A stretch of DNA of 64,000 bases from Clostridiales bacterium GWD2_32_19. GTDB taxonomy: Bacteria; Bacillota; Clostridia; Lachnospirales; UBA12420. Every line of letters begins with the position of its first letter. The stretch's first letter is position 1. This document shows positions 47,914-49,866 of this stretch, piece after piece. The notes under the pieces are model-generated. The model was not told the origin of the DNA and ran no database searches. It saw only the letters and a list, made by a program, of their open reading frames with translations. A program made the position numbers and the translations under genes. Location: contig MGOU01000020.1 of assembly GCA_001795385.1 (NCBI GenBank), positions 27,539 to 91,538 of the forward strand. Reading direction: 5' to 3'.

Positions 47914-48018
47914 TTTAGTATTCCATCTTACTCATTCTTACATATCCTTCATATCTATCTTTTGCTTGTTTCTCTGCTTCTACAAATAACTTATCTGCCA
48001 TTTCTGGGAATTGTTTTT
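47914..48018. repeat. Direct repeat A: displaced duplicate of the PFOR 3' end
   Basis: 105 bp aligning to 49762-49866 with 3-4 mismatches. On the minus strand it encodes [33 protein letters not shown]. Confidence 0.9.
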
Positions 48019-48025
48019 AATAGTT

Positions 48026-48724
48026 TTAAGATTCTATCAGAATCTCTAGTTCTACTTCTATACTTTCCCTGATATCATCATAATAAACCTTACTTACCTT
48101 ACAATCTATCTTGTAATTATTATCAATAGCAATTGAAATTGCTTTACTAAAATACTTTGGTATATAGCCTAATTTAGCATTTTCTTTACTAAAAACCTCT
48201 ATTGCACATTCATCAAATTCATTGCAAGGCTCCTTTTTTAAAATCAATCTTTCATACTCAGTTAATCCCATTTTTTTTAATTTTTCTATATCTTCTATAT
48301 AATATCTAATACCTGCTAAATAAAAATCCCTTTTAAAGTTTTTCTCATTATTCTCAAAGTTTATCGGTTCCACAAATTCTAGCATGTCAGTCGGTAACTT
48401 ACCACCATTCTTTTTCAAAAACTCAAATTCATTATATTCTTCTAATTCGTATTTTTCTAGAATCTCTTTTATATTTTTCCTTCTTTTATCTGGTAGTCTA
48501 GTAGTAAACGCCGGAAACATTCTTTGATTTTCATAAACCTTGTCTATATCGGAAAAAGCTGGAAGTAACTCAAATTTCGCTTTTTTTGCTTCTTTTACAC
48601 CATCTTTATCATATTTAAATTCAAATCCATAACTTGTTTTTGCTAACTCTGCAATTTTATACCTATTACGTTTTTCAGGATCTTGCCAAATTAACCATAA
48701 AACATTTTTTTCCATATTAATCAA
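48026..48724 (-). CDS. HipA-N-terminal-like domain fused to a HIRAN domain
   Basis: N-terminal half (LLPAFSD...FPAFTTRLPDKRRKNIKEIL...FLKKNGGKLPTDMLEFVEP) resembles the HipA N-terminal (HipS-like) domain. C-terminal half (FYLAGIRYY...LILKKEPCNEFDECAIEVF...KLGYIPK) fits HIRAN. It overlaps the kinase gene by 8 nt. Confidence 0.65.
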   Translation of the reverse strand: MINMEKNVLWLIWQDPEKRNRYKIAELAKTSYGFEFKYDKDGVKEAKKAKFELLPAFSDIDKVYENQRMFPAFTTRLPDKRRKNIKEILEKYELEEYNEFEFLKKNGGKLPTDMLEFVEPINFENNEKNFKRDFYLAGIRYYIEDIEKLKKMGLTEYERLILKKEPCNEFDECAIEVFSKENAKLGYIPKYFSKAISIAIDNNYKIDCKVSKVYYDDIRESIEVELEILIES

Positions 48725-49603
48725 ACTCCTTTCCTATTATTTTTTCCCTTCTATCTACTAAAAATTTTATTAAAAGTTTTTTCCTTTTAGAACTAATAGT
48801 ATCCTCATCAAATTCATATACTAGTTCCTTTATTACTTCTTCATTCAAATTTTCTTTTATTCTCGAAATTATTCCCTTCACTTCATGACAATATTCCAAA
48901 TTCAACATTATAAGCAATTCAAAGTGTTGCATTTTTCGTTTATTTTTCCATCCTACTAAAGCTTTTGATTTTGTAGTTAACATTGCCTGATATCTGCACT
49001 TGTCTCTTAATATATCTTCAATATCTTCTTCATTATTATAGCAACATAATGAAGAACTATTATCGTATACTGGTGCTATTTTAATAGTCCTCTCTATTTC
49101 ATTGAAAACGACTCCCCAATTACTATGGTGCCTATCAGAATTACCTATTAGTATATCAAAAATTATAATTTCTAATATCTCTGTACTAAGTCCAACTACA
49201 TTTATGGCTTCTACTATCATTTGTATATCATAATGTCTATCTAAAACCGTATCATAGAATTTGTTTTCATCATAATCAATAAATATTTTTGTTATAAAAT
49301 TTATACCTTCTACTAGTGTCTCCGAATTTTCTAAAAAATAATAGTTCATAGAACCTATCCTGCCTTTATATTTTCCTATTTCCACACTTTGGCAAGGTAG
49401 GTTTATTCTATCAGCTAACATACTTGCTAACTTTTCTGCCCAATATTCTCCTGTGATAACTCCTTTGCTATCCTTCTTCGGAAATTTAAAAAGACCTATC
49501 TTTTTTCTTTTATATTTACTAACCAAAGCTTTTCACTTGCTCCAGACCCCTCTGGAGAATTTTTTATTTCTTCCCAATTATCAAAGTTCTTTAGTTCAAC
49601 CAT
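48717..49603 (-). pseudogene. HipA-like Ser/Thr kinase core, frameshifted at an A6 tract
   Basis: Catalytic block FDILIGNSDRHHSNWGV. The ATG at 49603 (GGAG RBS) encodes MVELKNFDNWEEIKNSPEGSGASEKLWLVNIKEKR*. One extra A in the run 49501-49506 would fuse it to ...KKIGLFKFPKKDSKGVITGEYWAEKLA. Confidence 0.75.
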
Positions 49604-49714
49604 TTTCCAAATCTCCTAACCTACTACTTATTATCCAAATTTATACTATCATATTTATGTTTAAATTTCAATCTTTTTAATAAAACTTTAATATAATGTT
49701 AATATACAAGTTCA

Positions 49715-49759
49715 AATATAAACAAGGGAGCCGTCTTCCTCGGCTCCCTTGTTTATATT
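49715..49759 (-). terminator. Strong terminator immediately after the functional PFOR stop codon
   Basis: 19-bp stem aatataaacaagggagccg/cggctcccttgtttatatt. Confidence 0.7.
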
Positions 49760-49761
49760 GA

Positions 49762-49866
49762 TTTAGTATTCCATCTTACTCATTCTTACATATCCTTCAT
49801 ATCTATCTTTTGCTTGTTTTTCTGCTTCTGCAAATAACTTATCTGCCATCTCTGGGAATTGTTTTT
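49762..49866. repeat. Direct repeat B: 3' end of the functional PFOR gene
   Basis: Partner of 47914-48018. Confidence 0.9.

Follow-up and report, generated by a model that had tools for sequence, protein, structure and literature searches.

A 64,000-nt stretch of the genome of Clostridiales bacterium GWD2_32_19 (contig MGOU01000020.1, positions 27,539 to 91,538; hereafter the window, whose coordinates are used throughout unless a relative is named) carries a small islet at the stop codon of its pyruvate:ferredoxin oxidoreductase (PFOR) gene. The inserted DNA consists of 1,743 bp of unique sequence (48019–49761) plus one copy of a 105-nt direct repeat that duplicates the PFOR 3' end, and it carries a frameshifted hipIN-type candidate toxin–antitoxin module. 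Alignment with a sister species that retains the empty site establishes the insertion at the PFOR stop codon, together with its boundaries and the duplication (Table 1). For its origin, we give about even credence to the reading that the islet is the integrase-less remnant, after internal deletion, of a site-specific element once resident at the PFOR 3' end, either a phage or an integrative and conjugative or integrative and mobilizable element (ICE or IME).

Insertion at the PFOR stop codon

The sister-species locus was found by scanning a genome collection with the gene that lies beyond the distal repeat (47046..47741) as the query. In the sister species Clostridiales bacterium UBA12072 (locus L012), a 1177-aa PFOR gene (6282..9815) is followed, after 185 nt, by an orthologue of this query gene (79% identical). 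The intergenic terminator of UBA12072 (about 9866–9892) aligns with the distal hairpin of the window (47829–47864), and the sequence after it, GTAGAAATGTATAAAATAGTG, likewise aligns with the distal flank of the window. The same uninterrupted arrangement of PFOR and downstream gene occurs in a metagenome contig (L013). The UBA12072 locus is colinear with the window, at about 85% nucleotide identity, through PFOR to 49759 and again from 48018, and positions 9712–9819 align to both copies of the window repeat. Because PFOR is joined directly to this flank in both L012 and L013, the distal flank of the window is native, and the proximal hairpin and the cargo genes are inserted; that hairpin is missing from the empty site in both relatives. 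An empty site of exactly this form, with PFOR running straight into the 47829–47864 terminator, had been forecast in the original prediction. The genes around the insert in the window are syntenic and of housekeeping type. Only two other lineages with relatives of the downstream gene were found, the UBA12072-type empty site and a third lineage (L050), in which a 65% identical orthologue has no PFOR gene beside it.

The two repeat copies are 97.1% identical over 105 nt, with three mismatches (plus-strand positions 47972/49820, 47982/49830, and 48002/49850; E-value 3e-47), and the same repeat search and blastn comparison found no third copy in the window; the earlier count of three to four mismatches is thereby fixed at exactly three. 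Read on the minus strand, the repeat begins with 2 nt of a codon, runs through the final 33 PFOR codons and the stop codon, and extends 1 nt further. All three differences fall within the first 47 nt on the PFOR strand, and the remaining 3' 58 nt are identical. Translation of the distal copy yields the peptide that had been claimed for it, namely about 33 PFOR codons and the stop with a single alanine-to-valine change relative to the proximal copy; the other two differences are synonymous. The copies differ from each other at 3/105 positions, whereas each differs from UBA12072 at 15/105 and from a more distant relative (L014) at 20/105, so the duplication postdates the separation of the two species, and its second copy derives from the same lineage. 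Expressed as identity, the PFOR fragment borne by the element is 97% identical to the host copy and 86% to the sister species. Attempts to polarize the three mismatches with the outgroups gave an ambiguous result that did not reveal which copy had changed.

The nifJ-type PFOR encoded across the proximal junction is intact, with the Pfam domains POR_N, PFOR_II, POR, EKR, Fer4, and TPP_enzyme_C, and its length of 1177 aa is matched by each of the orthologues in L012, L013, and L014. Two hairpins had been predicted, one at either end of the insertion, and both were confirmed, with stabilities well above those of shuffled sequence. The insert-borne hairpin forms a perfect 19-bp stem (-33.5 kcal/mol, z -8.4) and, judging from its structure and A/T-rich surroundings, is likely an intrinsic terminator that works in both directions and at which PFOR transcription now stops. 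The hairpin beyond the distal repeat has a 14-bp stem (-15.5 kcal/mol, z -4.7). The G+C content of the insert is 27.8%, compared with 35.6% for PFOR and 32.6% for the window.

An assembly artefact, which would have undone the original prediction, or a chance repeat can be given practically no weight. An exact-protein look-up located the same arrangement in four other assemblies, 99.97–100% identical over 3.5 kb: the ANAN16 scaffold, the UBA assembly GCA_003518385.1, the Joint Genome Institute (JGI) metagenome 3300001041, and a MEGAHIT k127 contig of SRR944699. The three copy-specific mismatches are reproduced in every one of these independent assemblies, and the k127 contig spans the repeat unambiguously because its k-mer length exceeds the 105 nt of the repeat; the E-value of the repeat itself speaks against chance. 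In favour of an artefact is the breaking of Logan contigs inside the repeat, which indicates that it confuses short-k assemblers; these short contigs end 30 nt short of the end of the repeat, as expected for a k=31 graph. All of these assemblies represent one population, that of Clostridiales bacterium GWD2_32_19, and are thus silent on strain polymorphism.

Table 1. Features of the PFOR locus and the islet, in window coordinates, with the two junctions deduced for the empty site and for a circular form
Feature	Position	Strand	Description	Basis
PFOR	49763..53296	-	nifJ-type pyruvate:ferredoxin oxidoreductase, 1177 aa, intact; target gene	Open reading frame (ORF) and Pfam
Proximal direct repeat (attL-like)	49762..49866	-	Functional end of PFOR: last 33 codons and stop	
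Insert-borne hairpin	49715..49759	strand-neutral	2 nt beyond proximal repeat; A/T-rich tracts on either side	
Leader of cargo operon	49604..49714	-	AT-rich, about 110 nt	
hipI, N-terminal fragment	49496..49603	-	35 codons; invariant Gly-rich loop SPxGSGASEKxWL	
hipI, kinase core ORF	48717..49526	-	269 aa, without N-terminus; HipA_C, PADLOC PDC-M03A	
hipN	48026..48715	-	229 aa from ATG, intact; HipS-like (Couple_hipA) and HIRAN domains	
Distal direct repeat (attR-like)	47914..48018	-	Displaced, non-functional PFOR 3' end, 7 nt past hipN stop	
Native PFOR terminator hairpin	47829..47864	-	Now 1.85 kb from PFOR	Conserved in UBA12072 empty site
Empty-site junction			PFOR body, single repeat copy, then AAGGGATATTAATG	
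Circle junction			hipN end (...GAATCTTAAAACTATT), single repeat copy, then TCAATATAAACAAGGG	

The hipIN-type cargo and its relatives

In PFOR orientation, the insert comprises the hairpin, a leader, hipI, hipN, and the distal repeat. The leader contains a promoter-like TTGAAA separated by 17 nt from TG-TAGTAT (TGnTAGTAT; 49671–49643), and an AGGAG ribosome-binding site; the first 115–170 nt of the insert, including this leader, have no homologue in any fetched locus. The hipI core ORF matches HipA_C (1.7e-8) and the PADLOC model PDC-M03A (1e-85, model positions 29–284 of 293), and its stop codon is 1 nt from the start of hipN, so that the genes are coupled. HipN matches HIRAN (1.4e-8), Couple_hipA (1.3e-5), PDC-M03B (3e-75), and phrog_8026 (1.3e-51), and is a putative antitoxin or sensor. 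In the described hipIN modules, a HipI kinase is paired with a putative antitoxin, HipN, that joins a HipS-like domain to a HIRAN domain (Gerdes et al., 2021; PMC8262856). The insert has the same gene order, domains, and translational coupling, and both PADLOC models match strongly: the kinase core lacks N-subdomain 1 and has the Gly-rich loop and the catalytic motif (GNSDRHHSNWG and SPxGSGASEKxWL are invariant in the hipI alignment), and the partner gene downstream has the expected HipS-like and HIRAN domains. The cargo is thus classified by homology as a hipIN-type candidate toxin–antitoxin and candidate anti-phage module. The PDC systems are themselves untested candidates, nominated for their embedding in bacteriophage exclusion (BREX), DISARM, or type I restriction–modification (RM) loci (bioRxiv 10.1101/2024.01.29.577857).

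Unlike its relatives, the kinase is split, with the Gly-rich loop parted from the catalytic core: all assemblies alike have ORFs of 35 and 269 aa in place of one intact, expressible kinase gene. The frameshift, beyond which the N-terminal fragment runs into a stop codon, lies at a run of six A residues (49501–49506); a seventh A would restore an ORF of roughly 296 aa, and HipI repaired in this way aligns end to end with homologues of 298–305 aa. Because the frameshift splits the N-terminus from the core, the HipI kinase toxin is most likely inactive. A programmed frameshift was considered and is unlikely, given that all homologues are single ORFs, that the run is a plain A6, and that A7 restores the frame. 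The earlier description of a HipA-like/HIRAN pair as the sole cargo therefore holds for the two genes, and had left the kinase frameshift unmentioned. As the cargo toxin has most likely been inactivated already, the impact of the islet on its host is probably small.

No close copy of the cargo was found among 5.8 billion proteins, in which the best matches to HipN and HipI were 53% and 49% identical, respectively. More distant hipIN relatives lie between pglX and pglZ in the BREX operons of several Clostridium genomes. Other relatives lie beside type I RM genes (Inediibacterium), beside Cas9 or Fic genes, or between housekeeping genes. In the IMG/VR database, one contig (L049, 8001–9576) has hipIN directly after an Amidase_3/ChW endolysin gene and before helix-turn-helix (HTH) and ParM-like genes, and another (L048, 1214–2829) has hipIN between the large terminase gene and a portal gene apparently split into two ORFs; HipI and HipN relatives each have their own PHROG family. 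This distribution across BREX, RM, and Cas9 loci, phage contigs, and PHROG families marks the hipIN pair as an accessory module that is often transferred and that belongs to phages and defence islands. When 1.5 kb on either side was compared at seven other hipI(N) loci, none had flanking repeats (the window locus was recovered as a positive control). The repeat hence belongs to this insertion event and not to the cargo family, and the idea that such repeats are a property of the family was rejected (7/7 loci lack them).

Two details of these relatives are recorded here in their own right. Loci L039–L044 (Clostridium algidicarnis, Clostridium sp. P21, and others) have hipI–hipN, or hipI with a 132-aa partner, inside type 1 BREX, and in one of these genomes the pair is placed between pglX and a cas9–cas1–cas2 locus. 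The L049 contig is possibly a phage-plasmid.

Origin of the islet

If the islet is what remains of a site-specific element, the parent would have been a temperate phage or an ICE/IME-type island whose attP held a near-perfect copy of the last 33 PFOR codons. Recombination with the chromosomal PFOR end would have joined PFOR to the element-borne end and to the bidirectional terminator of the element, and would have pushed the host's own gene end and native terminator beyond the distal boundary of the element. A later internal deletion would have removed the integrase and core genes, leaving the hipIN accessory module beside attR, and the subsequent loss of 1 nt in the A-run would have inactivated the HipI kinase toxin. 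The site-specific integration, the deletion, and the order of these events are what we infer from the architecture of the locus. Several features point this way. The repeat stops 1 nt past the PFOR stop codon and the junction restores the 1177-aa PFOR; by analogy with known elements, such a restored full-length target is a hallmark of elements that bring a replacement gene end. Identity between the copies ends at the gene end, that is, where selection stops, and a strong terminator belonging to the insert begins 2 nt beyond the proximal repeat. Prophage accessory cargo in Firmicutes usually lies just downstream of the lysin gene, near the prophage end, and such a position would explain the short gap of 7 nt between hipN and the distal repeat. 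An old, decaying insertion agrees with the frameshift in the toxin gene and with the 3% divergence of the repeats.

Integrase-less remnants of the cis-mobilizable element (CIME) type, 1.2–13 kb in size and retaining attL and attR, are documented and reportedly very common; their recorded sites are the 3' ends of tRNA genes and of the protein genes rpsI, rpmG, fda, and rplL (PMC5704250; PMC7563491). The islet resembles the CIMEs, decayed ICE/IME remnants of streptococci, in being small and in carrying only cargo genes, with no integrase, excisionase, relaxase, coupling protein, VirB4, or other signature gene, and in its attL/attR-like direct repeats, with a protein-coding target gene whose 3' end forms one of the pair (boundaries confirmed by L012 and L013). 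It differs from them in its PFOR target and its uncultured groundwater Clostridiales host, which are new, in the length of its repeat (105 nt), and in being solitary rather than in tandem with a live element. As to an ICE or IME ancestor, the searches turned up neither a parent element nor any fragment of its genes, and relatives of the cargo also occur on phages; a prophage origin is at least as likely. With cryptic prophage remnants that carry moron genes by attR, the islet shares cargo placed directly against the distal repeat, and hipIN relatives occupy phage accessory positions and have their own PHROG families; it differs in that no structural, lysis, or lysogeny gene is left, such that phage ancestry would be a deduction from the cargo and its placement. 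Elements that target 3' ends (ICESt3 at fda; IMEs at rpsI, rpmG, and rplL) likewise use the extreme 3' end, restore the frame, and are flanked by direct repeats; the islet differs from these in having no integrase.

The absence of any integrase, transposase, or tRNA gene, as claimed at the outset, was borne out by gene, domain, and tRNA searches: the segment holds two genes only, the neighbouring genes encode no recombinase domain, and the whole window has no tRNA gene. Other classes of element were considered and set aside on similar grounds. An autonomous island or prophage would have an integrase in the segment or a recombinase in its flanks, and neither is present. An integron cassette is contradicted by the sole palindrome, a perfect 19-bp stem without GTTRRRY/RYYYAAC boxes, and by the lack of intI, and a transposon or insertion sequence by the lack of a transposase and of terminal inverted repeats and by a duplication that is 105 nt long and imperfect. 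Rfam gave no relevant match to a known RNA (a faint miRNA match is the hairpin only), and two viral matches to the hairpin core were both unrelated GC-rich terminators.

A number of observations weigh against descent from a site-specific element. With 105 nt, the identity block would be an unusually long att site, several times the length common among the repeats of 3'-end-targeting elements, and with hipN 7 nt from the repeat there is little non-coding space for attP arm sites. No integrase or core-gene fragment survives in the insert, in which a deletion scar could lie only within the 110-nt leader. A second PFOR 3' end was absent downstream of all 27 related PFOR ends compared, drawn from genomes and metagenomes (0/27), and the notion of the PFOR end as a recurrent hot spot was rejected on this count. 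The PFOR C-terminus of the window occurs in no viral contig searched; a PFOR gene is present on a single viral contig (L047), where the sequence that follows the gene is host-like. Comparison of the insert DNA with 50,697 phage and 72,556 plasmid records gave no match. The same-species assemblies, which represent one population, are all identical, with no polymorphism or excision signal. The exact empty junction was found in none of the JGI metagenomes, a collection that lacks this species (best PFOR matches 82–85%).

A modest chance is left for the main rival, a Campbell-type single crossover, in which a circle bearing the hairpin, hipIN, and a 105-bp PFOR fragment integrated through host RecA with no integrase involved; the circle could be an excised copy from a conspecific cell, acquired by transformation or transduction. 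The topology of the islet is exactly that of single-crossover integration, the fragment comes from the same lineage (97% identical to the host vs. 86% to the sister species), and the lack of recombinase genes and of room for attP arms presents no difficulty here. A DUF6273 gene inserted between duplicated 153/156-aa genes 4–6 kb away shares this topology, although that case is equally explicable as an old tandem paralogue. Such a crossover leaves unexplained why the PFOR fragment of the circle ends precisely at the stop codon, unless the circle itself descended from an att-type element; moreover, 105 bp is short for efficient RecA recombination, and neither circles nor other copies are in evidence. 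We assign a small chance to the islet being a functional satellite (a CIME in the strict sense), with repeats that are live att sites served in trans by the integrase of a related phage or ICE, be it resident elsewhere in the genome or newly arrived. The two repeats are little changed, with 58 identical nt at the 3' end, the architecture of terminator, promoter, two genes, and repeat is compact and tidy, and cis-mobilization by accretion is documented for CIMEs (PMC5704250; PMC7563491). Against this stand the decayed toxin, the failure to find a helper element in the window or in any collection searched, the absence of a second copy of the islet among the 5.8 billion proteins, and the lack of strain polymorphism among the same-species assemblies from their one population.

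It is quite unlikely that one-sided homologous recombination with a relative carrying hipIN directly after PFOR, completed by an illegitimate join 105 bp upstream of the recipient stop codon, produced the islet, in which case the insert-borne hairpin would be the native PFOR terminator of the donor. Homology that ends at the stop codon is expected between strains with differing intergenic regions, and the region downstream of PFOR is indeed variable between species (the post-stop sequences of L012 and L014 are unrelated to each other); yet no relative examined has this hairpin or hipIN after PFOR, and the duplication requires that the same recipient stretch be used twice. One-sided events, moreover, usually delete rather than duplicate recipient DNA. 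An integrase-independent mobility of small defence or toxin–antitoxin cassettes, with a short copy of a conserved essential gene's end serving as a homology arm by which the cassette loops out as a circle and, after transfer, enters a related genome by RecA, has a similarly slim probability. Under this mechanism, the target gene would always be restored and the cassette would always bring its own terminator; the DUF6273 insertion would then count as a second outcome of the process in this lineage. The analysis found nothing that speaks for a new mode of mobility.

Descent from a site-specific element thus remains our preferred account of the islet. Of the attL/attR-like footprint originally proposed, the insertion, the duplication, and the replacement gene end stand as observed, and site-specific recombination is the part that we infer. 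Of the two origins then offered, the decayed remnant fits better than a cassette moved by an unknown mechanism, in view of the seven related cargo loci without repeats. In its present form, the islet has no means of moving on its own; it could be lost via RecA acting between the 105-nt repeats, and it would be movable only if a related element supplied the integrase. It provides a clean and fully delimited example of a candidate defence or toxin–antitoxin module that has ended as an orphan chromosomal islet, in which replacement of both gene end and terminator can be seen, as can the two junctions and the empty site. The PFOR 3' end, previously unreported in this role, joins the list of protein-gene ends used as integration targets. 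Methods based on signature genes admittedly miss solitary integrase-less remnants (PMC7563491); these can be picked up by screening for long but imperfect copies of gene ends.

Other features of the window and its relatives

The DUF6273 gene (41751..43985) encodes a 744-aa protein with internal repeats and lies between two copies of a 153/156-aa membrane-protein gene (41251–41771 and 44076–44609; about 86% alike), constituting a second duplication-flanked insertion in the window. In UBA12072, the 153/156-aa gene is single (L012, 15392–15959), and the upstream window copy is the more UBA12072-like in its 5' third. Further differences between the two species lie downstream of PFOR, where the window has an extra 248-aa ORF (44834..45580) without a family match, and UBA12072 has three genes (380, 258, and 382 aa; L012, 11150–14400) between the PilZ and DegV genes that are missing from the window. 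The PilZ-domain gene of the window (46655..47011) is located two genes downstream of the islet. Upstream of PFOR is a tandem duplication of about 624 bp (53462–54453), containing 64-nt repeats with hairpins (53462–53525 and 54086–54149) and acidic ORFs of 79 and 84 aa; its UBA12072 counterpart has roughly half that length.

A dispersed intergenic repeat of about 166 nt occurs at 1576–1741 and 37963–38128 (98% alike), with partial copies at 4225–4292 and 14161–14210. It contains a hairpin, CGAAGCAATCTCATCTTTCAAAAACGAGATTGCTTCG, and a CCCCG...CGGGG stem, resembles miniature inverted-repeat transposable elements (MITEs) or repetitive extragenic palindromic (REP) sequences, and has no Rfam match; a related motif is found just downstream of PFOR in L014 (10240–10275). 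A 111-nt sequence is present three times, at a spacing of almost exactly 20 kb (13978–14088, 33969–34079, and 53774–53884; 82–85% alike). Its copies lie at gene starts and may be a leader or regulatory element, with no Rfam match at the gathering threshold. Two intergenic tandem arrays consist of a 13-nt unit (TATATTTATCTTC-like, at least five copies; 25764–25859) and an 18-nt unit (AGTAATCAATCAATCTTT, about four copies; 58088–58159). In the GWE2_32_10-like locus L050 (5040–6315), gene calling gives two pieces, Rho_N (83 aa) and ATP-synt_ab (303 aa), for the gene that lies upstream of the 227-aa orthologue and that may be a split or frameshifted rho. A c-di-GMP-I-GGC riboswitch (RF03167, 60.7 bits) is located on the minus strand at 62890–62973, upstream of a 269-aa ORF (62077..62886).

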